A stretch of 64,000 nt of DNA from Escherichia coli (GTDB taxonomy: Bacteria; Pseudomonadota; Gammaproteobacteria; Enterobacterales; Enterobacteriaceae). The notes under the pieces are model-generated. The model had not been told where the DNA came from. It did not search any database and saw only the letters and a list, made by a program, of their open reading frames with translations. The stretch lies in the NCBI RefSeq assembly GCF_044324785.1, contig NZ_CP172127.1. One strand, written 5' to 3'. Shown here piece after piece: positions 1-37,069 of this stretch. The translations under genes were made by a program, and so were the position numbers. Position 1 is the first letter of the stretch; every line of letters starts with the position of its first letter.

Positions 1-1
1 G

Positions 2-991
2 AATGTTTATCCGTTGACCCCGCGCCTGATTGATCAATTACGCCCACGACCCAACGTAGCGCGCCCCAATATGACGCTGGAAAGTGAGATCGCGAATTAC
101 CAGTATCGCGTCGGGCCGGGGGACGTTCTTAATGTCACCGTCTGGGATCACCCGGAACTCACCACGCCAGCCGGTCAGTACCGCAGCTCCAGCGACACCG
201 GCAACTGGGTACAGCCTGACGGCACTATGTTCTACCCGTATATCGGCAAGGTTCACGTCGTGGGGAAAACGCTCGCTGAAATCCGCAGTGATATTACCGG
301 GCGCTTAGCGACGTACATCGCTGACCCGCAGGTGGACGTTAATATCGCCGCCTTCCGCTCACAAAAGGCCTATATCTCCGGACAGGTGAATAAATCCGGC
401 CAACAGGCGATCACCAACGTGCCACTGACCATTCTCGATGCCATCAACGCCGCAGGTGGCCTGACCGATACTGCTGACTGGCGCAACGTGGTGCTAACAC
501 ACAATGGTCGTGAAGAGCGCATTTCTTTGCAGGCGCTGATGCAAAACGGCGACCTCAATCAGAACCGACTGCTTTATCCTGGCGATATTCTCTACGTGCC
601 GCGTAATGATGATCTGAAAGTATTTGTGATGGGTGAAGTTAAAAAACAGAGCACCCTGAAAATGGACTTTAGCGGCATGACCCTGACTGAAGCCCTGGGT
701 AATGCTGAAGGCATCGACATGACCACCTCCAACGCCAGCGGCATCTTTGTCATTCGTCCGTTGAAAGGCGAGGGCGGGCGTAACGGCAAGATTGCCAATA
801 TCTACCAGCTGGATATGTCCGATGCCACATCGCTGGTGATGGCGACAGAATTCCGCCTGCAACCTTATGACGTGGTGTATGTCACCACCGCCCCGGTTTC
901 CCGCTGGAACCGTCTGATCAATCAGTTGCTGCCAACTATTAGCGGTGTCCGTTACATGACGGATACAGCCAGCGACATTCATAACTGGTAA
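2..991 (+). CDS. wza: Wza outer-membrane polysaccharide export protein (colanic acid); 5' end lies upstream of the window
   Basis: Reading frame is open to the window edge; translation matches the C-terminal ~330 aa of E. coli Wza; followed by wzb and wzc. Confidence 0.9.
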
Positions 992-996
992 TCGTC

Positions 997-1440
997 ATGT
1001 TTAACAACATCTTAGTTGTCTGTGTCGGCAATATTTGCCGCTCCCCGACGGCGGAACGCTTACTGCAACGTTATCATCCGGAGCTAAAAGTGGAGTCCGC
1101 TGGACTCGGCGCGCTGGTCGGTAAGGGCGCTGACCCTACTGCTATCAGCGTCGCCGCAGAACATCAACTGTCTCTGGAAGGTCACTGTGCACGGCAAATC
1201 AGCCGTCGCCTGTGTCGCAACTACGACCTGATTTTGACCATGGAAAAGCGCCATATCGAACGCTTATGTGAGATGGCACCTGAGATGCGCGGCAAAGTGA
1301 TGCTGTTTGGTCACTGGGATAACGAATGTGAAATCCCCGATCCGTATCGCAAAAGCCGGGAAACGTTTGCAGCGGTGTACACATTACTTGAACGGTCTGC
1401 CCGCCAGTGGGCGCAGGCATTGAACGCAGAGCAGGTATAA
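997..1440 (+). CDS. wzb: Low-molecular-weight protein-tyrosine phosphatase Wzb
   Basis: 147 aa with N-terminal CVGNICRSP P-loop motif; position between wza and wzc. Confidence 0.9.
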   Translation: MFNNILVVCVGNICRSPTAERLLQRYHPELKVESAGLGALVGKGADPTAISVAAEHQLSLEGHCARQISRRLCRNYDLILTMEKRHIERLCEMAPEMRGKVMLFGHWDNECEIPDPYRKSRETFAAVYTLLERSARQWAQALNAEQV

Positions 1441-1442
1441 GA

Positions 1443-3605
1443 ATGACAGAAAAAGTAAAACAACATGCCGCTCCGGTAACGGGCAGTGATGAAATCGATA
1501 TTGGTCGCCTGGTCGGCACCGTCATTGAAGCGCGCTGGTGGGTAATTGGCATCACCGCCGTATTCGCCCTCTGTGCCGTGGTTTACACCTTCTTCGCCAC
1601 GCCGATATACAGCGCCGACGCACTGGTACAAATCGAACAAAGCAGCGGCAATTCGCTGGTGCAGGATATCGGATCGGCATTAGCCAACAAACCGCCTGCA
1701 TCGGACGCCGAGATCCAGTTGATTCGTTCGCGTCTGGTGCTTGGTAAAACGGTGGACGATCTCGACCTCGATATTGCGGTGAGCAAAAACACGTTCCCGA
1801 TTTTCGGTGCGGGCTGGGATCGCCTGATGGGACGTCAGAACGAGACGGTAAAAGTGACCACCTTTAACCGTCCGAAAGAGATGGCGGATCAGGTGTTTAC
1901 GCTTAATGTGCTGGACAACAAAAACTACACCCTGAGCAGCGACGGCGGCTTTAGCGCCCGTGGGCAAGCGGGCCAGATGCTGAAAAAAGAAGGCGTCACA
2001 CTGATGGTTGAAGCCATTCACGCCAGCCCGGGCAGTGAGTTTACCGTCACCAAATACTCCACGCTGGGGATGATCAATCAACTGCAAAACAGCCTGACGG
2101 TAACGGAGAACGGCAAAGATGCTGGCGTTTTGAGCCTGACTTATACTGGAGAAGATCGCGAACAGATCCGCGACATTCTTAACAGTATCGCCCGTAACTA
2201 TCAGGAACAAAATATTGAGCGCAAATCGGCGGAAGCGTCGAAAAGCCTCGCTTTCCTCGCGCAACAGTTACCGGAAGTACGTAGCCGCCTCGATGTTGCC
2301 GAAAACAAACTGAATGCCTTCCGTCAGGATAAAGATTCAGTTGATCTGCCGCTGGAAGCGAAAGCGGTGCTCGATTCGATGGTGAACATCGACGCGCAGT
2401 TGAACGAACTGACCTTTAAAGAGGCGGAAATCTCCAAGCTGTACACCAAAGTTCACCCGGCGTACCGCACGCTGCTGGAGAAACGGCAGGCGCTGGAAGA
2501 CGAAAAAGCCAAACTTAATGGTCGCGTAACGGCGATGCCGAAAACCCAGCAGGAGATTGTGCGCCTGACCCGCGATGTCGAGTCTGGTCAGCAGGTCTAT
2601 ATGCAACTGCTGAATAAAGAGCAGGAGCTGAAAATCACCGAAGCCAGCACCGTCGGCGATGTGCGCATTGTTGACCCGGCAATCACTCAGCCTGGTGTGC
2701 TGAAACCGAAGAAAGGGTTGATTATCCTCGGTGCAATTATCCTCGGCCTGATGCTCTCTATCGTGGGTGTACTGCTGCGCTCGTTGTTTAATCGCGGCAT
2801 TGAAAGCCCGCAGGTGCTGGAAGAACATGGCATCAGCGTCTATGCCAGCATCCCGCTGTCGGAGTGGCAGAAAGCGCGCGATAGCGTCAAAACCATCAAA
2901 GGGGTTAAACGCTATAAACAGAGCCAGCTACTGGCGGTGGGGAATCCAACCGATCTGGCGATTGAAGCCATCCGTAGTCTGCGTACCAGTCTGCACTTCG
3001 CGATGATGCAGGCACAGAACAATGTGTTGATGATGACCGGGGTTAGCCCGTCAATCGGTAAAACCTTTGTCTGCGCCAACCTGGCGGCGGTGATCAGCCA
3101 GACCAATAAACGGGTGTTGTTGATCGACTGCGATATGCGCAAAGGCTACACCCACGAGCTGTTGGGCACCAATAACGTCAATGGCCTGTCGGAAATTCTG
3201 ATTGGTCAGGGCGATATTACTACCGCTGCTAAACCGACCTCTATTGCCAAATTTGACCTGATCCCGCGCGGTCAGGTACCGCCAAATCCTTCTGAACTCT
3301 TGATGAGCGAACGCTTTGCCGAACTGGTGAACTGGGCGAGTAAAAACTACGACCTGGTGTTGATTGATACGCCGCCGATTCTGGCAGTGACCGATGCGGC
3401 AATTGTTGGTCGTCATGTCGGAACCACGTTAATGGTGGCGCGTTATGCGGTCAACACATTGAAAGAAGTGGAAACCAGCCTGAGCCGCTTTGAGCAAAAC
3501 GGTATTCCGGTGAAAGGGGTGATTCTGAACTCCATCTTCCGCCGCGCCAGCGCGTATCAGGATTATGGCTATTACGAATACGAATATAAGTCGGATGCGA
3601 AATAA
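1443..3605 (+). CDS. wzc: Tyrosine autokinase / polysaccharide co-polymerase Wzc
   Basis: 720 aa from ATG at 1443 (MTEKVKQ...); C-terminal Tyr-rich tail YQDYGYYEYEYKSDAK; the track ORF at 1407 is a GTG-initiated upstream extension. Confidence 0.9.
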   Translation: MTEKVKQHAAPVTGSDEIDIGRLVGTVIEARWWVIGITAVFALCAVVYTFFATPIYSADALVQIEQSSGNSLVQDIGSALANKPPASDAEIQLIRSRLVLGKTVDDLDLDIAVSKNTFPIFGAGWDRLMGRQNETVKVTTFNRPKEMADQVFTLNVLDNKNYTLSSDGGFSARGQAGQMLKKEGVTLMVEAIHASPGSEFTVTKYSTLGMINQLQNSLTVTENGKDAGVLSLTYTGEDREQIRDILNSIARNYQEQNIERKSAEASKSLAFLAQQLPEVRSRLDVAENKLNAFRQDKDSVDLPLEAKAVLDSMVNIDAQLNELTFKEAEISKLYTKVHPAYRTLLEKRQALEDEKAKLNGRVTAMPKTQQEIVRLTRDVESGQQVYMQLLNKEQELKITEASTVGDVRIVDPAITQPGVLKPKKGLIILGAIILGLMLSIVGVLLRSLFNRGIESPQVLEEHGISVYASIPLSEWQKARDSVKTIKGVKRYKQSQLLAVGNPTDLAIEAIRSLRTSLHFAMMQAQNNVLMMTGVSPSIGKTFVCANLAAVISQTNKRVLLIDCDMRKGYTHELLGTNNVNGLSEILIGQGDITTAAKPTSIAKFDLIPRGQVPPNPSELLMSERFAELVNWASKNYDLVLIDTPPILAVTDAAIVGRHVGTTLMVARYAVNTLKEVETSLSRFEQNGIPVKGVILNSIFRRASAYQDYGYYEYEYKSDAK

Positions 3606-3611
3606 CGACGC

Positions 3612-3666
3612 CTGCATTCGCACCGCCCCGTAGGCCGGATAAGGCGTTCACGCCGCATCCGGCAAG
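3612..3666. repeat. REP (repetitive extragenic palindromic) element in the wzc-wcaA intergenic region
   Basis: gccccgtaggccggataaggcgttcacgccgcatccggcaag matches the enterobacterial REP consensus. Confidence 0.6.
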
Positions 3667-3697
3667 CAAACCAGCTCATAAGCCGGGAGAACAACCT

Positions 3698-4537
3698 ATG
3701 AAAGACAATCCGCTGATCTCAATCTATATGCCGACCTGGAACCGCCAACAACTGGCGATTCGGGCGATAAAATCGGTCCTGCGCCAGGACTATAACAACT
3801 GGGAGATGATCATCGTGGATGATTGCTCCACCTCCTGGGAACAACTCCAACAGTACGTCACCGCCCTCAACGATCCGCGTATCACCTACATTCACAACGA
3901 CATTAACAGCGGGGCGTGCGCGGTACGTAACCAGGCGATTATGCTGGCGCAAGGGGAATATATCACCGGGATCGATGATGATGATGAATGGACACCCAAC
4001 CGTCTGAGCGTCTTCCTCGCCCATAAACAGCAACTGGTCACACACGCCTTTTTGTACGCTAACGACTACGTTTGCCAGGGCGAGGTCTACTCCCAGCCGG
4101 CAAGTTTGCCGCTGTATCCCAAATCGCCGTATTCACGCCGCCTGTTCTACAAACGCAATATCATTGGCAATCAGGTCTTTACCTGGGCGTGGCGTTTCAA
4201 AGAGTGTTTGTTCGATACCGAACTGAAAGCGGCACAGGATTACGACATTTTCCTGCGGATGGTGGTGGAGTACGGCGAACCGTGGAAAGTAGAAGAGGCG
4301 ACGCAGATCCTGCATATCAATCACGGTGAAATGCAGATCACCTCGTCACCGAAAAAATTCTCCGGATACTTCCACTTTTACCGCAAGCACAAAGACAAAT
4401 TTGACCGCGCCAGCAAAAAATATCAGCTGTTTACCCTCTACCAGATCCGCAATAAACGCATGACCTGGCGCACTTTGCTGACGCTGCTGTCGGTGCGTAA
4501 CGGCAAACGTCTGGCTGATGGTATTCGGGGGCGCTAA
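3698..4537 (+). CDS. wcaA: Colanic acid glycosyltransferase WcaA (GT2 family)
   Basis: 279 aa, matches K-12 WcaA; conserved position. Confidence 0.9.
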   Translation: MKDNPLISIYMPTWNRQQLAIRAIKSVLRQDYNNWEMIIVDDCSTSWEQLQQYVTALNDPRITYIHNDINSGACAVRNQAIMLAQGEYITGIDDDDEWTPNRLSVFLAHKQQLVTHAFLYANDYVCQGEVYSQPASLPLYPKSPYSRRLFYKRNIIGNQVFTWAWRFKECLFDTELKAAQDYDIFLRMVVEYGEPWKVEEATQILHINHGEMQITSSPKKFSGYFHFYRKHKDKFDRASKKYQLFTLYQIRNKRMTWRTLLTLLSVRNGKRLADGIRGR

Positions 4538-4539
4538 AG

Positions 4540-5028
4540 ATGCTGGAAGATCTGCGCGCCAACAGCTGGAGTTTACGCCCGTGCTGCATGGTTCTTGCCT
4601 ATCGCGTTGCTCATTTTTGTTCGGTGTGGCGCAAAAAGAACGTCCTCAACAATATTTGGGCGGCCCCGCTGCTGGTGCTGTATCGCATTATCACCGAATG
4701 CTTTTTCGGTTATGAAATCCAGGCAGCCGCAACCATTGGTCGCCGTTTCACTATCCATCACGGCTATGCCGTAGTGATCAATAAAAACGTGGTCGCGGGG
4801 GATGATTTCACCATTCGCCACGGCGTCACTATCGGCAATCGTGGAGCCGATAACATGGCATGTCCACACATTGGCAACGGCGTCGAACTCGGTGCCAACG
4901 TTATTATTCTTGGTGATATCACGCTTGGTAACAATGTCACCGTGGGCGCGGGCAGCGTGGTGCTCGACTCTGTCCCGGACAACGCGCTGGTGGTGGGAGA
5001 AAAAGCGCGAGTGAAGGTAATTAAATGA
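4540..5028 (+). CDS. wcaB: Colanic acid acetyltransferase WcaB (hexapeptide-repeat family)
   Basis: 162 aa, matches K-12 WcaB. Confidence 0.9.
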   Translation: MLEDLRANSWSLRPCCMVLAYRVAHFCSVWRKKNVLNNIWAAPLLVLYRIITECFFGYEIQAAATIGRRFTIHHGYAVVINKNVVAGDDFTIRHGVTIGNRGADNMACPHIGNGVELGANVIILGDITLGNNVTVGAGSVVLDSVPDNALVVGEKARVKVIK

Positions 5029-6242
5029 ATATTCTGCAATTTAATGTGCGACTGGCGGAAGGCGGGGCAGCAGGTGTGGCGTTAGATCTCCACCAGCGTG
5101 CGCTGCAACAGGGGCTGGCGTCACATTTTGTCTACGGCTACGGCAAAGGCGGCAAAGAGAGCGTCAGCCATCAAAACTATCCGCAGGTCATCAAACATAC
5201 GCCGCGGATGACCGCGATGGCGAACATTGCCCTGTTTCGTCTGTTTAATCGCGATCTGTTCGGCAATTTCAATGAGTTATATCGCACCATTACTCGCACA
5301 CCGGGTCCGGTGGTCCTGCATTTTCATGTGCTGCACAGCTACTGGTTGAATCTTAAGAGCGTGGTGCGCTTTTGCGAAAAAGTGAAAAACCACAAACCGG
5401 ATATCATTTTGGTCTGGACGTTACACGATCACTGGAGCGTTACCGGACGCTGCGCCTTTACCGACGGTTGTGAAGGCTGGAAAAAGGGCTGCCAGAAATG
5501 CCCGACCTTAAATAATTATCCGCCGGTGAAGATTGATCGCGCACACCAGCTGGTGGCGGGCAAACGCCAGTTATTCCGTGAGATGCTGGCGCTGGGCTGT
5601 CAGTTTATTTCCCCCAGCCAGCATGTGGCTGATGCTTTCAATAGTCTGTACGGTCCAGGGCGTTGCCGGATTATCAATAATGGCATTGATATGGCAACCG
5701 AAGCGATTCTGGCGGACTTGCCTCCGGTGCGCGAAACCCAGGGCAAGCCGAAAATCGCGGTGGTGGCGCATGATCTGCGTTACGACGGCAAAACTAACCA
5801 GCAACTGGTACGCGAGATGATGGCGCTGGGCGACAAAATCGAACTGCATACCTTTGGTAAGTTCTCGCCGTTCACCGCTGGCAACGTGGTTAATCACGGC
5901 TTTGAAACTGACAAGCGCAAGTTGATGAGCGCGCTCAATCAGATGGATGCGCTGGTATTCAGTTCTCGCGTCGATAACTACCCGCTGATTTTGTGTGAGG
6001 CGCTATCGATTGGCGTGCCGGTGATTGCCACCTATAGCGACGCGGCGCGGGAAGTGTTGCAAAAATCCGGCGGTAAAACCGTCAGCGAAGAAGACGTGCT
6101 GCAACTGGTGCAGTTAAGCAAACCGGAAATCGCGCAGGCGATATTTAGTACCACGCTGGCTGAGTTCAGCCAACGCAGCCGCGCCGCCTACAGTGGACAA
6201 CAGATGCTGGAGGAGTATGTCAACTTCTATCAGAATCTGTAG
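5025..6242 (+). CDS. wcaC: Colanic acid glycosyltransferase WcaC
   Basis: 405 aa, matches K-12 WcaC; 4-nt overlap with wcaB. Confidence 0.9.
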   Translation: MNILQFNVRLAEGGAAGVALDLHQRALQQGLASHFVYGYGKGGKESVSHQNYPQVIKHTPRMTAMANIALFRLFNRDLFGNFNELYRTITRTPGPVVLHFHVLHSYWLNLKSVVRFCEKVKNHKPDIILVWTLHDHWSVTGRCAFTDGCEGWKKGCQKCPTLNNYPPVKIDRAHQLVAGKRQLFREMLALGCQFISPSQHVADAFNSLYGPGRCRIINNGIDMATEAILADLPPVRETQGKPKIAVVAHDLRYDGKTNQQLVREMMALGDKIELHTFGKFSPFTAGNVVNHGFETDKRKLMSALNQMDALVFSSRVDNYPLILCEALSIGVPVIATYSDAAREVLQKSGGKTVSEEDVLQLVQLSKPEIAQAIFSTTLAEFSQRSRAAYSGQQMLEEYVNFYQNL

Positions 6243-7434
6243 CTACCTGCTGCTGCCGCTGATTTACCTGCTGGTTAACGTCAAAATCGCCCAGCTTGGC
6301 GAAAGTTTCCCCATCACCATCGTCACTTTTTTACCTGTCTTGTTACTGCTGTTTTTAGAGCGCATCAGCGTTAAAAAATTGATGATTGCCTTGGGGATTG
6401 GCGCGGGGCTCACGGCGTTCAACTATCTGTTTGGTCAGTCGTTGGATGCCAGTAAATACGTCACTTCAACCATGCTGTTTGTCTATATTGTGATCATTAT
6501 TGGCATGGTGTGGAGTATTCGCTTTAAAACGATTTCGCCACACAACCATCGCAAGATATTACGTTTCTTTTATCTGGTGGTCGGGCTGGTGGTGGCGCTG
6601 GCGGCAGTGGAGATGGCGCAAATTATCCTCACCGGTGGCAGCAGTATTATGGAGTCGATTTCGAAATATCTGATTTACAGCAACAGCTATGTGCTGAATT
6701 TCATCAAATTCGGCGGCAAGCGCACGACCGCACTTTATTTCGAACCGGCATTTTTCGCTCTGGCATTAATCTCAATTTGGCTCAGCATCAAACAGTTTGG
6801 TATCAAAACGCCTAAAACCGATGCTATGATTCTCGCAGGGATAATATTATCCGGATCGTTTTCAGGGGTTATGACCTTTATCCTGTTTTATTTGCTGGAG
6901 TGGGCATTTCAATATCTGAATAAAGAGGCGATTAAGAAAAAGTTACCGTTAGCATTGATTTCTATGGCTGTATTCCTGGTTGGTGTGGTAATTGCATTTC
7001 CTTATATTTCCACCCGTCTGGGCGATTTAGGTACGGAAGGATCGTCATCATATTATCGTATTGTCGGTCCGCTGGTGATGGTCGGTTATTCTTTGACCCA
7101 TATTGACGGTGTAGTCAGATTTGGCTCACTTTATGAATATGTCGCATCATTCGGAATATTTAACGGTGCGGATGTCGGAAAAACCATAGACAATGGTTTG
7201 TATCTGCTGATTATTTATTTTTCCTGGTTCGCGGTGTTTTTATCGCTGTGGTACATGGGGAAAGTGATAAAAATGATGATCAACGCTTTTGGTGATAACC
7301 GCAATTTTCGCGTGCAATTATATCTTTTTACTCCGGTATCGCTGTTTTTTACCGGTTCGATATTTAGCCCGGAATATGCATTTTTAATCGTCTGTCCGTT
7401 TATTTTGCGAAAAGCGTTAAATATTACGAGGTAA
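6217..7434 (+). CDS. wcaD: Colanic acid polymerase WcaD (multi-pass membrane protein)
   Basis: 405 aa from ATG at 6217 ([14 protein letters not shown]...); hydrophobic multi-TM profile; track ORF at 6193 is a GTG extension. Confidence 0.85.
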
Positions 7435-7444
7435 GAATAAGAAC

Positions 7445-8191
7445 ATGTTGCTTAGCATAATCACTGTCGCGTTTCGTAACCTCGCAGGGATAGTCAAAAC
7501 ACATGCCTCGCTGGCGCATCTGGCGCAGGCGGACGATATCAGCCTCGAATGGATTGTTGTCGATGGCGGTTCCAACGACGGTACCCGTGAGTACCTGGAA
7601 AATCTCAAGGGTATCTATAACCTACGCTTTGTCAGCGAGCCAGATAACGGTATCTACGACGCCATGAACAAGGGCATTGCGATGGCACAAGGCAAGTTCG
7701 CGTTGTTTCTCAACTCGGGCGATATTTTTCATCAGGATGCCGCAAATTTTGTCCGTAAGTTAAAAGTGCAAAAAGATAACGTGATGATCACCGGCGATGC
7801 GCTGCTGGATTTTGGCGACGGGCATAAGATTAAACGTAGCGCCAAACCGGGTTGGTATATTTATCACAGCCTGCCCGCCAGTCATCAGGCGATATTTTTC
7901 CCGGTATCCGGCTTGAAAAAATGGCGTTATGACCTGGAATATAAAGTTTCTTCCGACTACGCGCTGGCAGCCAAAATGTATAAAGCCGGTTATGCATTTA
8001 AAAAACTCAATGGCCTGGTGTCTGAATTTTCTATGGGTGGGGTATCAACCACCAATAATATGGAATTGTGTGCTGACGCGAAAAAAGTCCAACGGCAAAT
8101 ATTACATGTGCCTGGCTTTTGGGCTGAATTATCCTGGCATTTACGCCAACGTACTACCTCAAAGACGAAAGCCTTATATAACAAAAGCTGA
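7445..8191 (+). CDS. wcaE: Colanic acid glycosyltransferase WcaE (GT2)
   Basis: 248 aa, matches K-12 WcaE. Confidence 0.9.
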
Positions 8192-8206
8192 ATATAAGGG
8201 AAAACG

Positions 8207-8755
8207 ATGCAAGATTTAAGTGGATTCTCGGTGCCGAAAGGGTTCCGGGGCGGCAACGCTATTAAAGTGCAATTATGGTGGGCAGTACAGGCAACAATAT
8301 TTGCCTGGTCGCCACAAGTATTGTATCGCTGGCGGGCTTTTTTATTACGTTTATTCGGGGCAAAAATAGGAAAAAACGTAGTTATTCGTCCGTCAGTAAA
8401 AATTACCTATCCGTGGAAATTAACCTTAGGTGATTACGCGTGGGTCGGCGATGACGTCAATTTATATACCCTCGGTGAAATAACCATTGGCGCACATTCG
8501 GTGATATCGCAAAAAAGTTATTTATGCACCGGTAGCCACGACCATGCAAGTCAACATTTCACCATTAACGCCACGCCTATTGTGATTGGCGAGAAATGCT
8601 GGCTGGCGACAGATGTTTTTGTTGCCCCTGGCGTCACGATTGGCGACGGCACCGTCGTGGGTGCACGAAGCAGTGTTTTTAAATCGCTTCCGGCAAATGT
8701 GGTTTGCCGGGGGAATCCCGCAGTGGTGATACGCGAACGCGTTGAAACTGAATAA
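8207..8755 (+). CDS. wcaF: Colanic acid acetyltransferase WcaF
   Basis: 182 aa hexapeptide-repeat acyltransferase, matches K-12 WcaF. Confidence 0.9.
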   Translation: MQDLSGFSVPKGFRGGNAIKVQLWWAVQATIFAWSPQVLYRWRAFLLRLFGAKIGKNVVIRPSVKITYPWKLTLGDYAWVGDDVNLYTLGEITIGAHSVISQKSYLCTGSHDHASQHFTINATPIVIGEKCWLATDVFVAPGVTIGDGTVVGARSSVFKSLPANVVCRGNPAVVIRERVETE

Positions 8756-8781
8756 ATTCAAAAAATACAGAGGAATAAGAC

Positions 8782-9903
8782 ATGTCAAAAGTCGCTCTCA
8801 TCACCGGTGTAACCGGACAAGACGGTTCTTACCTGGCAGAGTTTCTGCTGGAAAAAGGTTACGAGGTGCATGGTATTAAGCGTCGTGCATCGTCATTCAA
8901 CACCGAGCGCGTGGATCACATTTATCAGGATCCACACACCTGCAATCCGAAATTCCACCTGCATTATGGCGACCTGAGTGATACCTCCAACCTGACGCGC
9001 ATTTTGCGTGAAGTGCAGCCGGATGAAGTGTACAACCTGGGTGCAATGAGCCACGTTGCGGTTTCTTTTGAGTCACCGGAATATACCGCAGACGTTGATG
9101 CGATGGGTACGCTGCGCCTGCTCGAGGCGATCCGCTTCCTCGGTCTGGAAAAGAAAACCCGTTTTTATCAGGCTTCTACCTCTGAACTGTACGGTCTGGT
9201 GCAGGAAATTCCGCAGAAAGAGACCACGCCGTTCTATCCACGCTCTCCGTATGCGGTCGCCAAACTGTATGCCTACTGGATCACCGTTAACTACCGCGAA
9301 TCCTACGGCATGTACGCCTGCAACGGTATTCTCTTTAACCATGAATCCCCGCGCCGCGGCGAAACCTTCGTTACCCGCAAAATCACCCGCGCAATCGCCA
9401 ACATCGCTCAGGGGCTGGAGTCGTGCCTGTACCTCGGCAATATGGATTCTCTGCGTGACTGGGGCCATGCCAAAGACTACGTAAAAATGCAGTGGATGAT
9501 GCTGCAACAGGAACAACCGGAAGATTTCGTTATTGCCACCGGCGTTCAGTACTCCGTGCGTCAGTTCGTGGAAATGGCGGCGGCACAACTGGGCATCAAA
9601 CTGCGCTTTGAAGGCACGGGTGTTGAAGAGAAGGGCATTGTGGTTTCCGTCACCGGGCATGACGCGCCGGGCGTTAAACCGGGTGATGTGATTATCGCCG
9701 TTGACCCGCGTTACTTCCGTCCGGCTGAAGTTGAAACGCTGCTCGGCGACCCGACCAAAGCGCACGAAAAACTGGGCTGGAAACCGGAAATCACCCTCAG
9801 AGAGATGGTGTCTGAAATGGTGGCTAATGACCTCGAAGCGGCGAAAAAACACTCTCTGCTGAAATCTCACGGCTACGACGTGGCGATCGCGCTGGAGTCA
9901 TAA
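8782..9903 (+). CDS. gmd: GDP-mannose 4,6-dehydratase
   Basis: 373 aa, N-terminal [11 protein letters not shown]ossmann motif; matches E. coli Gmd. Confidence 0.95.
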
Positions 9904-9905
9904 GC

Positions 9906-10871: not shown

Positions 10872-10873
10872 TG

Positions 10874-12573: not shown

Positions 12574-12575
12574 TT

Positions 12576-14012
12576 ATGGCGCAGTCGAAACTCTATCCAG
12601 TTGTGATGGCAGGTGGCTCCGGTAGCCGCTTATGGCCGCTTTCCCGCGTACTTTACCCCAAACAGTTTTTATGCCTGAAAGGCGATCTCACCATGCTGCA
12701 AACCACCATCTGTCGCCTGAATGGCGTGGAGTGCGAAAGCCCGGTGGTGATTTGCAATGAGCAGCACCGCTTTATTGTCGCGGAACAGCTGCGTCAACTG
12801 AACAAACTCACCGAGAACATTATTCTCGAACCGGCAGGGCGTAACACTGCACCTGCCATTGCACTGGCGGCGCTGGCGGCAAAACGTCATAGCCCGGAGA
12901 GCGACCCGTTAATGCTGGTATTGGCGGCGGATCATGTGATTGCCGATGAAGACGCGTTCCGCGCCGCCGTGCGTAATGCCATGCCGTATGCCGAAGCGGG
13001 CAAGCTGGTGACCTTTGGCATTGTGCCGGATCTCCCTGAAACCGGTTATGGCTATATTCGTCGCGGTGAAGTGTCTGCGGGTGAGCAGGATACGGTGGCC
13101 TTTGAAGTGGCGCAGTTTGTCGAAAAACCGAATCTGGAAACCGCTCAGGCCTATGTGGCAAGCGGCGAATATTACTGGAACAGCGGTATGTTCCTGTTCC
13201 GCGCCGAACGCTATCTCGAAGAACTGAAAAAGTATCGTCCGGATATTCTCGATGCCTGCGAAAAAGCGATGAGCGCCGTCGATCCGGATCTCGATTTTAT
13301 TCGCGTGGATGAAGAAGCGTTTCTGGCCTGCCCGGAAGAGTCGGTGGATTACGCAGTCATGGAACGTACGGCAGATGCTGTTGTGGTGCCGATGGATGCG
13401 GGCTGGAGCGATGTCGGTTCCTGGTCTTCATTATGGGAGATCAGCGCCCACACCGCCGAGGGCAACGTTTGCCACGGCGATGTGATTAATCACAAAACTG
13501 AAAACAGCTATGTGTATGCCGAATCTGGCCTGGTCACCACCGTCGGGGTGAAAGATTTGGTGGTAGTGCAGACCAAAGATGCAGTGCTGATTGCCGACCG
13601 TAACGCGGTGCAGGATGTGAAAAAAGTGGTCGAGCAGATCAAAGCCGACGGTCGCCATGAGCATCGGGTGCATCGCGAAGTGTATCGCCCGTGGGGCAAA
13701 TATGACTCTATCGACGCAGGCGACCGCTACCAGGTGAAACGCATCACCGTGAAACCGGGCGAGGGCTTGTCGGTACAGATGCACCATCACCGCGCGGAAC
13801 ACTGGGTGGTTGTCGCAGGAACGGCAAAAGTCACTATTGACGGTGATATCAAACTGCTTGGTGAAAACGAGTCCATTTATATTCCGCTGGGGGCGACGCA
13901 CTGCCTGGAAAACCCGGGGAAAATTCCGCTCGATTTAATTGAAGTGCGCTCCGGGTCTTATCTCGAAGAGGATGATGTGGTGCGCTTCGCGGATCGCTAC
14001 GGACGGGTGTAG
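12576..14012 (+). CDS. cpsB: Mannose-1-phosphate guanylyltransferase
   Basis: 478 aa, matches E. coli CpsB/ManC. Confidence 0.9.
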
Positions 14013-14113
14013 TAGTTGAATAATCAACCGGATTAATTCTCCGGTAAATAACGACAAAAACAAAATTGGCCGTTTCGGTCAGGGCCAACTACTGCCTGAA
14101 AAAGGGTAACGAT

Positions 14114-15484
14114 ATGAAAAAATTAACCTGCTTTAAAGCCTATGATATTCGCGGGAAATTAGGCGAAGAACTGAATGAAGATATTGCCTGGCGTATTGGG
14201 CGTGCCTATGGCCAATTTCTCAAACCGAAAACCATTGTGTTAGGCGGTGATGTCCGCCTCACCAGCGAAACCTTAAAACTGGCGCTGGCGAAAGGTTTAC
14301 AGGATGCGGGCGTCGATGTGCTGGATATCGGCATGTCCGGCACCGAAGAGATCTATTTCGCCACGTTCCATCTCGGCGTGGATGGCGGCATTGAAGTTAC
14401 CGCCAGCCATAACCCGATGGATTACAACGGCATGAAACTGGTGCGCGAAGGGGCTCGCCCGATCAGCGGCGATACTGGACTGCGCGATGTCCAGCGTCTG
14501 GCAGAAGCCAACGACTTTCCTCCCGTCGATGAAACCAAACGCGGTCGCTATCAGCAAATCAATCTGCGTGGCGCTTACGTTGATCACCTGTTCGGTTATA
14601 TCAACGTCAAAAACCTCACGCCTCTCAAGCTGGTGATCAACTCCGGGAACGGCGCGGCGGGGCCGGTGGTGGACGCCATTGAAGCCCGCTTTAAAGCCCT
14701 CGGCGCACCGGTGGAATTGATCAAAGTGCACAACACGCCCGACGGCAATTTCCCCAACGGTATTCCTAACCCGCTGCTGCCGGAATGTCGCGACGACACC
14801 CGCAATGCGGTCATTAAACACGGCGCGGATATGGGCATTGCTTTTGATGGCGATTTTGACCGCTGTTTCCTGTTTGACGAAAAAGGGCAGTTTATCGAGG
14901 GCTACTACATTGTCGGCTTGCTGGCAGAAGCGTTCCTCGAAAAAAATCCCGGCGCGAAGATCATCCACGATCCACGTCTCTCCTGGAACACCGTTGATGT
15001 GGTGACTGCTGCTGGCGGCACTCCGGTGATGTCGAAAACCGGACACGCCTTTATTAAAGAACGTATGCGCAAGGAAGACGCCATCTACGGTGGCGAAATG
15101 AGCGCTCACCATTACTTCCGTGATTTCGCTTACTGCGACAGCGGCATGATCCCGTGGCTGCTGGTCGCCGAACTGGTATGCCTGAAAGGGAAAACGCTGG
15201 GCGAACTGGTGCGCGACCGGATGGCAGCGTTTCCGGCAAGCGGTGAGATCAACAGCAAACTGGCGCAACCCGTTGAGGCAATTAATCGCGTCGAACAGCA
15301 TTTTAGCCGTGAGGCGCTGGCGGTGGATCGCACCGATGGCATCAGCATGACCTTTGCCGACTGGCGCTTTAACCTGCGCTCCTCCAACACCGAACCGGTG
15401 GTGCGGTTGAATGTGGAATCGCGCGGTGATGTGCCGCTGATGGAAGCGCGAACGCGAACTCTGCTGACGTTGCTGAACGAGTAA
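14114..15484 (+). CDS. cpsG: Phosphomannomutase
   Basis: 456 aa from ATG at 14114 ([14 protein letters not shown]...); TASHNP phosphoserine-loop motif; track ORF at 14066 is an upstream extension. Confidence 0.9.
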
Positions 15485-15538
15485 TGTCGGATCTTCCCTT
15501 ACCCCACTGCGGGTAAGGGGCTAATAACAGGAACAACG

Positions 15539-16933
15539 ATGACAAATCTAAAAAAGCGCGAGCGAGCGAAAACCAATGCATCGTTAATCTCTATGGTGCA
15601 ACGCTTTTCAGATATCACCATCATGTTTGCCGGACTATGGCTGGTTTGCGAAGTCAGCGGACTGTCATTCCTCTACATGCACCTGTTGGTGGCGTTGATT
15701 ACGCTGGTGGTGTTCCAGATGCTGGGCGGCATCACCGATTTTTATCGCTCATGGCGCGGTGTTCGGGCAGCGACAGAATTTGCCCTGTTGCTACAAAACT
15801 GGACCTTAAGCGTGATTTTCAGCGCCGGACTGGTGGCGTTCAACAATGATTTCGATACGCAACTGAAAATCTGGCTGGCGTGGTATGGGCTGACCAGCAT
15901 CGGACTGGTGGTTTGCCGTTCATGTATTCGCATTGGGGCGGGCTGGCTGCGTAATCATGGCTATAACAAGCGTATGGTCGCCGTAGCGGGGGATTTAGCC
16001 GCCGGACAAATGCTGATGGAGAGCTTCCGTAATCAGCCGTGGTTAGGGTTTGAAGTGGTGGGCGTATACCACGACCCAAAACCGGGCGGCGTTTCTAACG
16101 ACTGGGCGGGCAATCTGCAACAGCTGGTAGAGGATGCAAAAGCGGGCAAGATTCATAACGTCTATATCGCGATGCAGATGTGCGACGGCGCGCGAGTGAA
16201 AAAACTGGTCCATCAACTGGCGGACACCACCTGTTCGGTGCTGCTGATCCCCGATGTCTTTACCTTCAACATTCTCCATTCCCGTATCGAAGAGATGAAC
16301 GGCGTACCGGTGGTGCCGCTTTACGACACTCCGCTTTCCGGGGTTAACCGCCTGCTCAAACGTGCGGAAGATATTGTGCTGGCAACGCTGATCCTGCTGC
16401 TGATCTCCCCGGTGCTGTGCTGCATTGCGCTGGCGGTGAAACTCAGTTCATCTGGGCCGGTTATTTTCCGCCAGACTCGCTACGGCATGGACGGCAAGCC
16501 GATCAAAGTGTGGAAGTTCCGTTCCATGAAAGTGATGGAGAACGACAAAGTGGTGACTCAGGCGACGCAGAACGATCCGCGCGTCACCAAAGTGGGGAAC
16601 TTTCTGCGCCGCACCTCGCTGGATGAATTGCCGCAGTTTATCAATGTGCTGACCGGGGGGATGTCGATTGTCGGTCCACGTCCGCACGCGGTAGCGCATA
16701 ACGAACAGTATCGCCAGCTCATTGAAGGCTACATGCTGCGCCATAAAGTGAAACCGGGCATTACCGGCTGGGCGCAGATTAATGGCTGGCGCGGCGAAAC
16801 CGACACGCTGGAGAAAATGGAAAAACGCGTCGAGTTCGACCTTGAGTACATCCGCGAGTGGAGCGTCTGGTTCGATATCAAAATCGTTTTCCTGACGGTA
16901 TTCAAAGGCTTCGTTAACAAAGCGGCATATTGA
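15539..16933 (+). CDS. wcaJ: Undecaprenyl-phosphate glucose-1-phosphate transferase WcaJ (colanic acid initiating enzyme)
   Basis: 464 aa, N-terminal TM segments plus C-terminal sugar-phosphate transferase domain; matches K-12 WcaJ. Confidence 0.9.
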   Translation: MTNLKKRERAKTNASLISMVQRFSDITIMFAGLWLVCEVSGLSFLYMHLLVALITLVVFQMLGGITDFYRSWRGVRAATEFALLLQNWTLSVIFSAGLVAFNNDFDTQLKIWLAWYGLTSIGLVVCRSCIRIGAGWLRNHGYNKRMVAVAGDLAAGQMLMESFRNQPWLGFEVVGVYHDPKPGGVSNDWAGNLQQLVEDAKAGKIHNVYIAMQMCDGARVKKLVHQLADTTCSVLLIPDVFTFNILHSRIEEMNGVPVVPLYDTPLSGVNRLLKRAEDIVLATLILLLISPVLCCIALAVKLSSSGPVIFRQTRYGMDGKPIKVWKFRSMKVMENDKVVTQATQNDPRVTKVGNFLRRTSLDELPQFINVLTGGMSIVGPRPHAVAHNEQYRQLIEGYMLRHKVKPGITGWAQINGWRGETDTLEKMEKRVEFDLEYIREWSVWFDIKIVFLTVFKGFVNKAAY

Positions 16934-16934
16934 T

Positions 16935-18413
16935 ATGAGCTTACGTGAAAAAACCATCAGCGGCGCGAAGTGGTCGGCGATTGCCACGGTGATCATCATC
17001 GGCCTCGGGCTGGTGCAGATGACCGTGCTGGCACGGATTATCGACAACCACCAGTTCGGTTTGCTTACCGTGTCGCTGGTGATCATCGCGCTGGCAGATA
17101 CGCTTTCTGACTTCGGTATCGCTAACTCGATTATTCAGCGAAAAGAAATCAGCCACCTTGAACTCACCACGCTGTACTGGCTGAACGTCGGGCTGGGGCT
17201 TGTGGTGTGTGTGGCGGTGTTTTTGTTGAGTGATCTCATCGGCGACGTGCTGAATAACCCGGACCTGGCACCGTTGATTAAAACATTGTCGCTGGCGTTT
17301 GTGGTGATCCCCCACGGGCAGCAGTTCCGCGCGTTGATGCAAAAGGAACTGGAGTTCAACAAAATCGGCATGATCGAAACCAGCGCGGTGCTGGCGGGCT
17401 TCACTTTTACTGTGGTTAGCGCCCATTTCTGGCCGCTGGCGATGACCGCGATCCTCGGTTATCTGGTCAATAGTGCGGTAAGAACGCTGCTGTTTGGCTA
17501 CTTTGGCCGCAAAATTTATCGCCCCGGTCTGCATTTCTCGCTGGCGTCGGTGGCACCAAACTTACGCTTTGGTGCCTGGCTGACGGCGGACAGCATCATC
17601 AACTATCTCAACACCAACCTTTCAACGCTGGTGCTGGCGCGTATTCTCGGCGCGGGCGTGGCAGGGGGATACAACCTGGCGTACAACGTGGCCGTTGTGC
17701 CGCCGATGAAGCTGAACCCAATCATCACCCGCGTGTTGTTTCCGGCATTTGCCAAAATTCAGGACGACACCGAAAAGCTGCGCGTCAACTTCTACAAGCT
17801 GCTGTCGGTGGTGGGGATTATCAACTTTCCGGCGCTGCTGGGGCTGATGGTGGTGTCGAATAACTTTGTACCGCTGGTCTTTGGTGAGAAGTGGAACAGC
17901 ATTATTCCGGTGCTGCAATTGCTGTGTGTGGTGGGTCTGCTGCGTTCTGTGGGTAACCCGATTGGTTCGCTGCTGATGGCGAAAGCGCGGGTCGATATCA
18001 GCTTTAAATTCAACGTATTCAAAACCTTTCTGTTTATTCCGGCGATTGTTATTGGTGGGCAGATGGCGGGCGCAATCGGCGTCACGCTCGGTTTCCTGCT
18101 GGTGCAGATTATCAACACCATTCTGAGTTACTTCGTGATGATTAAACCGGTGCTCGGTTCCAGTTATCGCCAGTACATCCTCAGTTTGTGGCTGCCGTTT
18201 TATCTCTCGCTGCCGACGCTGGTGGTCAGTTATGCGCTGGGCATTGTGCTGAAAGGGCAACTGGCGCTGGGGATGCTGCTGGCGGTGCAAATAGCCGCGG
18301 GCGTGCTGGCGTTTGTAGTGATGATTGTGCTGTCGCGCCATCCGCTGGTGGTGGAAGTAAAGCGTCAGTTTTGTCGCAGCGAAAAAATGAAAATGCTTTT
18401 ACGGGCGGGGTGA
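16935..18413 (+). CDS. wzxC: Colanic acid repeat-unit flippase WzxC
   Basis: 492 aa multi-TM protein, matches K-12 WzxC. Confidence 0.9.
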   Translation: MSLREKTISGAKWSAIATVIIIGLGLVQMTVLARIIDNHQFGLLTVSLVIIALADTLSDFGIANSIIQRKEISHLELTTLYWLNVGLGLVVCVAVFLLSDLIGDVLNNPDLAPLIKTLSLAFVVIPHGQQFRALMQKELEFNKIGMIETSAVLAGFTFTVVSAHFWPLAMTAILGYLVNSAVRTLLFGYFGRKIYRPGLHFSLASVAPNLRFGAWLTADSIINYLNTNLSTLVLARILGAGVAGGYNLAYNVAVVPPMKLNPIITRVLFPAFAKIQDDTEKLRVNFYKLLSVVGIINFPALLGLMVVSNNFVPLVFGEKWNSIIPVLQLLCVVGLLRSVGNPIGSLLMAKARVDISFKFNVFKTFLFIPAIVIGGQMAGAIGVTLGFLLVQIINTILSYFVMIKPVLGSSYRQYILSLWLPFYLSLPTLVVSYALGIVLKGQLALGMLLAVQIAAGVLAFVVMIVLSRHPLVVEVKRQFCRSEKMKMLLRAG

Positions 18414-18483
18414 ATGGCTGTTTTCGGTTCCGGCAACGAAAACAACAACTAACCTCACCTGGCATCAAATTTATGAGGAAAAA

Positions 18484-19764
18484 ATGAAATTACTTATTCT
18501 GGGCAACCACACTTGCGGCAATCGTGGCGACAGCGCCATCTTGCGCGGCTTACTTGATGCCATCAACATCCTCAATCCACACGCCGAAGTGGACGTGATG
18601 AGCCGCTATCCGGTCAGTTCTTCCTGGCTACTCAACCGCCCGGTAATGGGCGATCCTCTGTTCCTGCAAATGAAACAACACAACAGCGCGGCGGGCGTTG
18701 TCGGGCGCATTAAAAAAGTCCTCCGTCGCCGCTACCAGCATCAGGTATTGCTCTCACGCGTCACTGACACTGGCAAGCTGCGTAATATCGCCATCGCCCA
18801 GGGATTCACTGACTTCGTGCGCCTGCTGTCAGGTTACGACGCCATTATTCAGGTCGGCGGATCGTTTTTTGTCGATCTCTATGGCGTGCCGCAGTTTGAA
18901 CATGCGCTTTGCACATTTATGGCGAAAAAACCGCTGTTTATGATTGGTCACAGCGTCGGCCCCTTCCAGGATGAGCAATTTAACCAACTGGCGAACTATG
19001 TCTTTGGTCATTGCGACGCGCTGATCCTGCGCGAATCGGTCAGCCTTGATTTGATGAAACGCAGCAATATCACTACCGCAAAAGTTGAACATGGCGTCGA
19101 TACCGCGTGGCTGGTCGATCACCACACCGAAGACTTCACCGCCAGCTATGCCGTTCAACATTGGCTGGACGTTGCCGCACAACAGAAAACGGTGGCCATT
19201 ACCCTGCGCGAACTGGCACCGTTCGACAAACGCCTCGGCACCACTCAACAAGCGTATGAAAAAGCCTTTGCCGGGGTGGTCAATCGCATTCTCGACGAAG
19301 GCTATCAGGTCATTGCGCTCTCCACCTGTACGGGCATTGACAGCTATAACAAAGACGACCGCATGGTGGCGCTCAACCTGCGCCAGCACATCAGCGATCC
19401 TGCCCGTTACCACGTAGTGATGGATGAACTCAACGATCTGGAAATGGGCAAAATTCTCGGTGCCTGTGAACTCACCGTCGGTACGCGCCTGCACTCGGCT
19501 ATTATCTCGATGAACTTTGCCACTCCGGCGATTGCCATCAACTATGAACATAAATCCGCCGGGATTATGCAGCAGCTGGGACTGCCAGAGATGGCGATTG
19601 ATATCCGTCATTTACTGGACGGCAGTTTGCAAGCGATGGTTGCGGATACCTTAGGCCAGCTTCCGGCGCTGAACGCGCGACTTAACGAAGCCGTCAGTCG
19701 CGAACGTCAGACGGGAATGCGGATGGTGCAATCTGTGCTTGAGCGCATCGGGGAGGTGAAATGA
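18484..19764 (+). CDS. wcaK: Colanic acid pyruvyl transferase WcaK
   Basis: 426 aa, matches K-12 WcaK. Confidence 0.85.
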   Translation: MKLLILGNHTCGNRGDSAILRGLLDAINILNPHAEVDVMSRYPVSSSWLLNRPVMGDPLFLQMKQHNSAAGVVGRIKKVLRRRYQHQVLLSRVTDTGKLRNIAIAQGFTDFVRLLSGYDAIIQVGGSFFVDLYGVPQFEHALCTFMAKKPLFMIGHSVGPFQDEQFNQLANYVFGHCDALILRESVSLDLMKRSNITTAKVEHGVDTAWLVDHHTEDFTASYAVQHWLDVAAQQKTVAITLRELAPFDKRLGTTQQAYEKAFAGVVNRILDEGYQVIALSTCTGIDSYNKDDRMVALNLRQHISDPARYHVVMDELNDLEMGKILGACELTVGTRLHSAIISMNFATPAIAINYEHKSAGIMQQLGLPEMAIDIRHLLDGSLQAMVADTLGQLPALNARLNEAVSRERQTGMRMVQSVLERIGEVK

Positions 19765-20981
19765 AGGTCGGCTTCTTCTTATTGAAATTCCCGCTGTCGT
19801 CGGAAACCTTCGTCCTCAATCAAATTACCGCGTTTATTGATATGGGCTTTGAGGTGGAGATTGTCGCGCTGCAAAAAGGCGACACCCAGAACACCCACGC
19901 GGCATGGACGAAATACAACCTTGCCGCCAGAACCCGCTGGTTACAGGACGAACCTACGGGCAAAGTGGCGAAACTGCGCCACCGCGCCAGCCAGACCTTA
20001 CGCGGCATTCATCGTAAAAATACCTGGCAGGCGCTCAACCTCAAACGCTATGGTGCCGAGTCGCGGAACCTGATTTTATCTGCCATTTGCGGCCAGGTCG
20101 CAACACCGTTTCATGCCGATGTCTTTATCGCTCATTTTGGCCCTGCGGGGGTAACCGCAGCAAAACTACGGGAACTGGGTGTCATTCGCGGCAAAATTGC
20201 CACCATCTTCCACGGCATTGATATCTCCAGTCGGGAAGTGCTCAACCACTACACCCCCGAATATCAACAACTGTTTCGCCGTGGCGATTTGATGCTACCG
20301 ATAAGCGATCTGTGGGCCGGAAGGCTGCAAAAAATGGGCTGCCCGAGGGAAAAAATTGCCGTATCGCGTATGGGCGTGGACATGACGCGCTTTAGCCCGC
20401 GTCCGGTGAAAGCGCCCGCAACGCCGCTGGAAATCATCTCCGTCGCACGCTTAACCGAGAAAAAAGGCCTGCATGTGGCGATTGAAGCCTGCCGTCAGTT
20501 GAAAGAGCAGGGCGTGGCATTTCGCTATCGCATCCTCGGCATTGGCCCGTGGGAACGACGCCTGCGCACCCTCATCGAACAATATCAACTGGAAGATGTG
20601 GTGGAGATGCCGGGCTTTAAACCGAGCCATGAAGTGAAAGCGATGCTCGACGACGCGGATGTCTTCCTGTTGCCATCGGTTACAGGTGCGGATGGTGATA
20701 TGGAAGGCATTCCGGTGGCGCTAATGGAAGCGATGGCGGTCGGTATTCCGGTGGTTTCTACTCTGCATAGCGGAATTCCTGAACTGGTGGAGGCCGATAA
20801 ATCCGGCTGGCTGGTGCCTGAGAACGATGCTCGAGCACTGGCGCAACGACTGGCGGCGTTTAGCCAACTGGACACCGACGAACTGGCTCCGGTCGTCAAA
20901 CGTGCGCGCGATAAAGTCGAACATGATTTTAACCAGCAGGTGATCAATCGAGAACTCGCCAGCTTGCTGCAGGCTTTATAG
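19761..20981 (+). CDS. wcaL: Colanic acid glycosyltransferase WcaL (GT4)
   Basis: 406 aa, matches K-12 WcaL; 4-nt overlap with wcaK. Confidence 0.85.
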
Positions 20982-20991
20982 AGGAGAACGC

Positions 20992-22386
20992 ATGCCATTT
21001 AAAAAACTCTCCCGACGCACCTTCCTGACGGCAAGTTCCGCGCTTGCCTTCCTCCATACCCCTTTTGCCCGTGCACTTCCCGCCCGACAAATCGTTAACA
21101 TTAACGACTACAACCCACACGACTGGATCGCCTCATTTAAACAAGCCTTCAGCGAAGGGCAAACGGTCGTCGTGCCTGCCGGATTGGTTTGTGAAAATAT
21201 CAACACCGGCATCTTCATTCCTCCTGGCAAAACGTTACACATCCTTGGAAGCCTGCGCGGCAACGGCAGAGGGCGTTTTGTCTTACAAGACGGCAGCCAG
21301 GTGACAGGGGAGAGGGGCGGCCGTATGCATAACATCACCCTGGATGTGCGCGGTTCTGACTGCACCATTAAAGGGTTGGCGATGAGCGGTTTTGGCCCGG
21401 TAACGCAGATTTATATCGGCGGCAAAAATAAACGCGTCATGCGCAACTTGACCATCGATAACCTGACCGTCAGCCACGCTAATTACGCCATTTTACGCCA
21501 GGGATTTCATAACCAGATTATCGGTGCCAACATCACCAACTGTAAGTTCAGCGACTTACAGGGCGACGCTATTGAATGGAATGTGGCAATTCACGACAGT
21601 GATATTTTGATATCCGACCATCTCATTGAGCGCATTAACTGTACCAACGGCAAAATCAACTGGGGCATCGGCATAGGCCTTGCGGGAAGTACCTACGATA
21701 ATAATTATCCGGAAAACCAGGCAGTGAAAAACTTTGTCGTGGCGAATATCACGGGATCAGATTGTCGGCAACTGATCCATGTTGAAAATGGTAAACATTT
21801 TGTTATCCGTAATATCAAAGCTCGTAATATCACGCCGGATTTCAGTAAGAAAGCAGGTATTGATAACGCCACAGTTGCTATTTATGGTTGTGACAACTTT
21901 GTGATTGATAATATTGAAATGATTAATAGTGCCGGGATGTTAATCGGCTATGGGGTAATTAAAGGCAAATATCTCTCGATACCGCAGAATTTCCGGGTGA
22001 ATAATATTCAACTGGATAATACTCATCTTGCTTATAAATTGCGCGGCATTCAAATCTCCGCCGGGAATGCTCTCTCCTTTGTGGCGCTGACTAACATTGA
22101 GATGAAGCGTGCCTCGCTTGAGCTACACAATAAACCGCAACACCTTTTTATGCGTAATATCAAGGTGATGCAGGAATCCTCAGTTGGACCCGCATTGAGC
22201 ATGAACTTCGACATGCGCAAAGACGTTCGCGGCGTGTTTATGGCGAAAAAAGAAACACTGCTATCTCTTGCAAATGTTCATGCGGTGAATGAAAAAGGAC
22301 AAAGCTCCGTCGATTTCGACAGGGTTAATCACCATATTGTTAATGTGGAAAAGATTAACTTTAGATTGCCGGAACGGAGGGAGTAG
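20992..22386 (+). CDS. wcaM: Colanic acid biosynthesis protein WcaM
   Basis: 464 aa with N-terminal signal-like sequence; matches K-12 WcaM; last gene of the cluster. Confidence 0.85.
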
Positions 22387-36973: not shown

Positions 36974-36990
36974 TCTTTTCGGTTTTAAAG

Positions 36991-37028: not shown

Positions 37029-37069
37029 GCCGGATGCGACAACAATATCGCATCCGCTTACCCCGCAAC

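Follow-up and report, generated by a model that had tools for sequence, protein, structure and literature searches.

The colanic acid gene cluster of an Escherichia coli contig is of the ordinary K-12 type and very probably functional

Does Escherichia coli contig NZ_CP172127.1 (assembly GCF_044324785.1) carry an intact colanic acid pathway next to an O-antigen cluster that contains frameshifts? Colanic acid, the polysaccharide of a slime capsule, is built from a hexasaccharide repeat of fucose, glucose, galactose and glucuronate bearing acetyl and pyruvyl groups. In the stretch of 64,000 nucleotides analysed here (the window), 20 colanic acid genes run from wza to wcaM between positions 2 and 22386, the latter being the end of the wcaM stop codon, all on the + strand and in the K-12 order. 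This region is almost certainly the canonical E. coli colanic acid (M-antigen) cluster and, as far as its sequence tells, it looks functional and under purifying selection. The genes and the roles of their products are those listed for wza, wzb, wzc, wcaA-F, gmd, fcl, gmm, wcaI, cpsB, cpsG, wcaJ, wzxC, wcaK and wcaL, as well as wcaM (PMC9143390). The presence of an intact colanic acid cluster is ordinary: this is the standard set of 20 genes, arranged as it generally is, and most E. coli genomes have it. The cluster is well characterised and near-universal in the E. coli chromosome, its intactness is expected and matters little, and its use here lies in annotation and as an internal control.

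The first-pass annotation had identified the colanic acid cluster from the letters alone and had called it complete, with all 20 genes in K-12 order and with intact reading frames. The identification was borne out by matches to 20 curated NCBIfam models, all 20 proteins scoring above the cut-offs and covering the full profile, except for Wza, which covers positions 51-379 of 380 because the window edge truncates the gene. Order, orientation, spacing and gene lengths agree with those of K-12 MG1655, in which wza-wcaM (b2062-b2043) consists of the same 20 genes. When the alignment with the K-12 wza-wcaM region that had been proposed as a check was run, it revealed no internal stop and no indel inside the genes. 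The 19 whole genes have the lengths of their MG1655 counterparts, ATG starts and proper stops, and are free of internal stops and gaps; likewise, the 330 wza codons present in the window contain no indel or internal stop when aligned to MG1655 at the gene level. Blastn of the whole region was collinear in a single orientation and showed an uninterrupted cluster with no inserted DNA, and all of its gaps could be assigned to intergenic DNA since the gene-level alignments were gap-free. No insertion sequence was listed in the annotated E. coli genomes across the compared, collinear part of the window, and Shigella is on these grounds an unlikely source of the DNA. Each of the 20 genes was thus found, but wza is represented only by codons 51-379, the window starting inside the gene; with 990 of 1140 nt of wza present, completeness is not demonstrable from the window alone.

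In the description of the genes that follows, substitutions are counted relative to K-12 and scores are given in bits with the model cut-off. The outer-membrane polysaccharide export channel gene wza (2..991) is present as its 3' 990 nt, the 5' 150 nt lying outside the window, and the 329 residues encoded are 100% identical to K-12 residues 51-379 (NF011658, 661.6 against 333). It is followed by wzb (997..1440), encoding a low-molecular-weight protein-tyrosine phosphatase of 147 aa that is 100% identical to K-12 (NF007520, 329 against 243), and by wzc (1443..3605), encoding the tyrosine autokinase and co-polymerase (720 aa, 3 substitutions; NF008568, 1516 against 1068). Then come the glucuronosyltransferase gene wcaA (3698..4537; 279 aa, 2 substitutions; TIGR04017, 644 against 496), the acetyltransferase gene wcaB (4540..5028; 162 aa, 1 substitution; NF007564, 363 against 196), the galactosyltransferase gene wcaC (5025..6242; 405 aa, 7 substitutions; TIGR04015, 888 against 785) and wcaD, for the Wzy-type colanic acid polymerase (6217..7434; 405 aa, 1 substitution; TIGR04010, 872 against 590). 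The fucosyltransferase encoded by wcaE (7445..8191; 248 aa; TIGR04009, 508 against 369) has 9 substitutions, 7 of which are K-12-specific, and the second acetyltransferase, from wcaF (8207..8755; 182 aa; TIGR04008, 401 against 326), is identical to that of K-12.

The same identity to K-12 was found for gmd, the GDP-mannose 4,6-dehydratase gene (8782..9903; 373 aa; TIGR01472, 587 against 415). Downstream of it lie fcl (wcaG), for GDP-L-fucose synthase (9906..10871; 321 aa, 4 substitutions; NF047922, 549 against 500), gmm (wcaH), for GDP-mannose mannosyl hydrolase (10874..11353; 159 aa, 3 substitutions; NF011963, 326 against 146), the fucosyltransferase gene wcaI (11350..12573; 407 aa, 3 substitutions; TIGR04007, 898 against 800), cpsB (manC), for mannose-1-phosphate guanylyltransferase (12576..14012; 478 aa, 3 substitutions; NF012004, 1114 against 859), and cpsG (manB), for phosphomannomutase (14114..15484; 456 aa, 4 substitutions; NF011943, 1053 against 801). 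The distal part of the cluster consists of wcaJ (15539..16933; 464 aa, 3 substitutions; NF007518, 990 against 684), the repeat-unit flippase gene wzxC (16935..18413; 492 aa, 3 substitutions; NF007773, 834 against 273), the pyruvyl transferase gene wcaK (18484..19764; 426 aa, 4 substitutions; TIGR04006, 934 against 727), the glycosyltransferase gene wcaL (19761..20981; 406 aa, 3 substitutions; TIGR04005, 881 against 538) and wcaM (20992..22386; 464 aa; NF007517, 1019 against 808). The latter encodes a colanic acid biosynthesis protein whose role is not established; with 17 substitutions and 93.7% nucleotide identity to K-12, it is the most diverged gene.

By analogy with K-12, these products would form a whole pathway. 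CpsG, CpsB, Gmd and Fcl would lead from mannose-6-phosphate to GDP-L-fucose, and Gmm would trim the GDP-mannose pool. WcaJ would start the repeat unit by transferring glucose-1-phosphate onto undecaprenyl phosphate, to which fucose, fucose, galactose, glucuronate and galactose would be added by WcaI, WcaE, WcaC, WcaA and WcaL, respectively. The unit would be acetylated by WcaF and WcaB and pyruvylated by WcaK, and the lipid-linked hexasaccharide would then be flipped across the inner membrane by WzxC and polymerised by WcaD, Wza, Wzb and Wzc being the likely agents of polymerisation control and of export through the outer membrane. The Rcs phosphorelay (RcsA/RcsB), whose regulators would be encoded elsewhere in the genome, would control transcription from a start site that precedes wza and falls outside the window. 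Inside the window, a consensus scan of positions 18300-25000 found 9 promoter-like and 6 terminator-like sites, against 7.7 of each in shuffled sequence; as there was no excess in either case, the scan is uninformative on internal transcription signals and on a terminator 3' of wcaM.

The short overlaps expected between neighbouring genes were compared with those of K-12. Those of wcaB/wcaC and wcaK/wcaL, announced by the first-pass annotation, are present and measure 4 nt each, and two further overlaps missing from its list were observed, of 26 nt for wcaC/wcaD and of 4 nt for gmm/wcaI. All four are the same in K-12, as are most spacers. The claimed fcl/gmm overlap depends on the start codon chosen: it amounts to 1 nt with the older gmm ATG at 10871 and gives way to a 2-nt gap with the current K-12 start at 10874, as it does in K-12 itself. 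Among the spacers, wcaF-gmd differs from K-12 by 1 nt and cpsB-cpsG by 3 nt, whereas the wzxC-wcaK spacer is 70 nt long in the window and 275 nt long in K-12 MG1655, where about 205 bp of REP-type repeats, lacking in the window, separate the two genes.

The 5' end of wza could be followed in a public contig, L006, which overlaps the window by 8.6 kb and is 100% identical to its positions 1-8605. In this contig wza is full length, with 379 of 379 residues identical to K-12 Wza, and the 658 nt upstream are about 98% identical to K-12 and keep the sequence GGCGGTAGCGTG, which we take to be the ops element of the leader; further upstream are asmA and a yegH-type gene of the TerC family. The integrity of the promoter and of the 150 nt at the start of wza is assumed here through L006, taken as a member of the same lineage.

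For the 19 whole genes, the identity with K-12 MG1655 ranges from 93.7 to 98.4% at the DNA level (a divergence of 1.6-6.3% per gene) and from 96.3 to 100% at the protein level. Overall, dS is 0.13 and dN 0.0045, and the resulting dN/dS of 0.034, with values of at most 0.27 for each gene, indicates purifying selection. In a three-way comparison with K-12 and strain SCU-102, 33 amino-acid changes were specific to the window, 35 to K-12 and 30 to SCU-102; this even split means that the window copy has no excess of protein changes. The window-specific substitutions include three in Fcl (R45W, R55S and Q194H) and four in WcaC, none of which, to our knowledge, affects a known catalytic residue.

Downstream of wcaM, the cluster is bordered as expected by galF (23782..24675) and then by the O-antigen cluster. 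An undecaprenyl-PP-GlcNAc 4-epimerase gene at 22544..23539 lies between wcaM and galF, where K-12 has none. The contrast that had been drawn between intact colanic acid genes and two frameshifts in the O-antigen cluster holds, as both frameshifts are real when set against an intact O22 cluster. Relative to the latter, the O22-type cluster of the window has single-base deletions in an A8 tract (at about 25527), reduced to A7 in a gene for a family 4 glycosyltransferase, and in a T7 tract (at about 29166), reduced to T6 in an acyltransferase gene. Both deletions were reproduced in an independent read-set assembly of identical sequence, which confirms them, and the absence of frameshifts from some 22 kb of adjoining colanic acid DNA further supports mutation rather than general assembly error. 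Ligation of colanic acid to the lipopolysaccharide core has been reported for K-12. One could imagine, as a rather improbable scenario, that a small subclone of a diverged lineage lost its O22 O-antigen by two slipped-strand deletions while the adjoining colanic acid pathway stayed under strict purifying selection, so that colanic acid, possibly core-ligated, would be left as the principal variable polysaccharide at the surface, and that the homopolymer tracts could serve as reversible on/off switches.

A cluster with intact reading frames might still be non-working in this strain, owing to damaging missense changes or to a defect outside the window. Examples of the former would be Fcl R45W or R55S and WcaC T154K; the latter could affect the promoter, the 5' end of wza, or one of rcsA, rcsB and rfaH. 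Some of the 33 window-specific substitutions are indeed non-conservative, the wza 5' end and promoter fall beyond the window edge, and the adjacent O-antigen cluster shows that the strain tolerates the loss of a surface polysaccharide. Nevertheless, such a defect appears very unlikely in view of the low dN/dS and of a count of lineage-specific changes equal to those of K-12 and SCU-102. Moreover, the exact WcaM protein of the window occurs in 503 blocks of a public collection and its Wzc allele in 421, and L006, identical in the overlap, possesses an intact wza and leader.

In E. coli and Klebsiella, group 1 (K30-type) cps loci also contain a Wza-Wzb-Wzc module, are Wzx/Wzy-dependent and lie near galF. 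That the locus would be such a capsule cluster, or that of another Wzy-dependent polysaccharide at the same chromosomal site, is scarcely credible: both locus types share Wza, Wzb and Wzc and adjoin galF and the O-antigen cluster, and Wzc of the window also matches a paralogous tyrosine-kinase model with 899 bits, but this score falls short of the 1248-bit cut-off whereas that of the Wzc model is exceeded, the proteins are 96-100% identical to those of K-12, and the serotype-specific transferases that replace wcaA-wcaM in group 1 loci are missing, the region being filled by equivalogs specific to colanic acid (WcaA, B, C, D, E, F, I, K, L and M), each above its cut-off. The group 1 reading was rejected on these family-model scores, in favour of the colanic acid cluster.

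Of the 5,426 complete genomes of E. coli in RefSeq, 4657 (about 86%) carry 80% or more of the 23-kb region contiguously. The whole region is absent from this set at an identity above about 97.2%, so the source genome does not belong to it, the best match being 97.1% over 23 kb (97.9% for the first 9 kb and 96.9% for positions 14000-23600). To judge from these identities, the lineage of the strain differs by about 3% in the colanic acid region from all complete E. coli genomes in RefSeq. A lineage with about 97% identity to E. coli would be placed within that species' own cluster in GTDB. The best complete-genome match, SCU-102 (NZ_CP051753.1), aligns collinearly along 24.7 kb, with gaps at only 9 positions. 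As in the window, its wzxC and wcaK are separated by the same short spacer and the epimerase gene stands between wcaM and galF, but its DNA identity of only 97.1% is no closer than that of K-12. Draft contigs with 100% identity were retrieved by exact-protein look-up from GCA_037978695.1, GCA_958309045.1, GCA_044681775.1 and SRR31073010.

The first-pass annotation had described a complete colanic acid (wca/cps) cluster at window positions 2-22386, with all 20 genes from wza to wcaM in K-12 order and with intact reading frames. In the ORF list for window 1-24000, the + strand reading frames formed an unbroken series, and whole-region blastn showed that the cluster was collinear both with E. coli K-12 MG1655 and with strain SCU-102 (NZ_CP051753.1), which gave the top megablast match among complete genomes. 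Global alignments were made between every K-12 gene and the corresponding gene of the window, at the DNA and protein levels. The 19 genes from wzb to wcaM had exactly the K-12 length, and each of them started with ATG, ended with a stop codon and contained neither an internal stop nor an alignment gap. Their DNA identity to K-12 ranged from 93.7% (wcaM) to 98.4% (wcaD), and their protein identity from 96.3% to 100%. Since the gene-level alignments hold no gap, all gaps of the whole-region alignment are intergenic. The reading frames from wzb to wcaM and the gene order were thus borne out by the alignments, and completeness holds for these 19 genes; wza is cut by the window start, which leaves 990 of its 1140 nt (codons 51-379), encoding a part 100% identical to the K-12 protein. 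The same 20 genes appear in a published list of the cluster (PMC9143390).

An exact-sequence look-up of the window Wzc led to a contig of GCA_037978695.1 that is 100% identical to window 1-8605. In this contig, wza encodes 379 amino acids identical to K-12 Wza, and the 658 nt upstream of the gene are about 98% identical to K-12, including the motif GGCGGTAGCGTG, which we take to be the ops/JUMPStart element. The usual neighbours, a TerC-family gene (yegH in K-12) and asmA, lie farther upstream. Given this full-length wza, whose 5' end lies outside the window as does its K-12-like leader, wza is very likely intact in the source lineage.

In a search of the 20 translated products against NCBIfam with curated cut-offs, each scored above the cut-off of the model bearing its own name and covered the full profile, except Wza, whose match to positions 51-379 of 380 reflects its truncation. 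The colanic-acid-specific equivalogs WcaA, B, C, D, E, F, I, K, L and M all passed, which ruled out a group 1 capsule locus, whose only genes in common with the colanic acid cluster are wza-wzb-wzc. By analogy with the K-12 system, CpsG, CpsB, Gmd and Fcl would supply GDP-fucose, while Gmm would act on the GDP-mannose pool. The repeat unit would be started on undecaprenyl phosphate by WcaJ, extended by WcaI, WcaE, WcaC, WcaA and WcaL, acetylated by WcaF and WcaB, and pyruvylated by WcaK. WzxC would then flip this unit and WcaD polymerise it, with Wza, Wzb and Wzc ensuring polymerisation control and export, and the whole cluster is probably under Rcs control.

Four overlaps were found, all identical in K-12: wcaB/wcaC (4 nt), wcaC/wcaD (26 nt), gmm/wcaI (4 nt) and wcaK/wcaL (4 nt). 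The first and last had been listed initially, together with fcl/gmm, an overlap that requires the ATG at 10871 (sequence TAATGATG) to be the start codon of gmm; with the equivalent of the current K-12 start, at 10874, a 2-nt gap separates the two genes, as in K-12. Apart from the truncated wza and these details of the overlap list, the initial description was correct. The sole sizeable spacer difference concerned wzxC-wcaK (18414..18483), 70 nt long versus 275 nt in K-12, where the alignment attributed the extra ~205 bp to two tandem copies of a REP-type palindromic unit. SCU-102, like the window, is devoid of these units.

For the whole cluster compared with K-12, Nei-Gojobori counts gave a dS of 0.13, a dN of 0.0045 and a dN/dS of 0.034. 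The highest single-gene ratio was that of wcaE (0.27), and 7 of the 9 WcaE differences were K-12-specific in a three-way comparison with SCU-102. Over all genes, this comparison assigned 33 lineage-specific amino-acid changes to the window, 35 to K-12 and 30 to SCU-102, evenly spread; no sign of relaxed constraint was apparent in the window copy. The cluster is well known and nearly universal in E. coli: by megablast of window 1-23000, the wza to wcaM region was matched in essentially all 5,426 complete RefSeq genomes of the species, and at least 80% of the query was found in one place in 4,657 of them.

Downstream, a gene encoding a 331-residue epimerase (22544..23539) lies between wcaM and galF (23782..24675), at a position where K-12 has no gene. 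It is annotated in RefSeq relatives as N-acetyl-alpha-D-glucosaminyl-diphospho-undecaprenol 4-epimerase (undecaprenyl-PP-GlcNAc 4-epimerase), and it presumably serves the O-antigen pathway, not colanic acid. Across 20992..24675, divergence from K-12 increases towards the O-antigen cluster: DNA identity is 93.7% for wcaM and 94.1% for galF versus about 97% for the rest, although the GalF protein is 100% identical. The gradient is consistent with recombination or hitch-hiking near the O-antigen locus.

Beyond galF, the O-antigen cluster is AT-rich (~30% GC) and 99.6% identical to annotated O22 clusters. Alignment to strain STEC711, whose O22 cluster is intact, revealed two coding single-base homopolymer deletions in the window, confirming the contrast initially drawn between an intact colanic acid cluster and a frameshifted O-antigen cluster: A8 to A7 at ~25527 splits a family 4 glycosyltransferase gene (24993..26083), and T7 to T6 at ~29166 splits an acyltransferase gene (28939..29523). 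Both deletions recur in the Logan assembly of run SRR31073010, which matches window 19993-30634 at 100% identity; this shows them to be genuine mutations of a small subclone and rules out an error confined to a single assembly. Only 5 contigs are recorded with the truncated 213-aa glycosyltransferase product, versus 503 blocks with the WcaM allele. The contrast is the same in kind in K-12, where a disrupted O16 cluster lies beside the intact colanic acid cluster.

No complete RefSeq E. coli genome among the 5,426 searched exceeded ~97-98% identity in the colanic region, nor did any match exceed 98.1% in the his-cob region. Over window 1..60000, the top complete-genome matches (~97-98%) were nearly equidistant from the window. 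The strain therefore seems to come from a lineage with few complete genomes, which may be cryptic clade I; several draft assemblies match the window at 100%. Alternatively, divergence may be elevated around the O-antigen recombination hotspot.

The remainder of the window has the usual E. coli backbone genes (gnd, ugd, wzzB, the his operon, sbcB, dacD, cobUST, nac and cbl), and no insertion sequence was listed for the region in the E. coli annotations compared with it. The yeeA and cobU genes are only ~1.3 kb apart (54321..55612); the K-12 interval presumably carries the CP4-44 prophage. A similarly short interval is present in strain STEC719, where it holds tmaR and a eutP/pduV-family pseudogene remnant.
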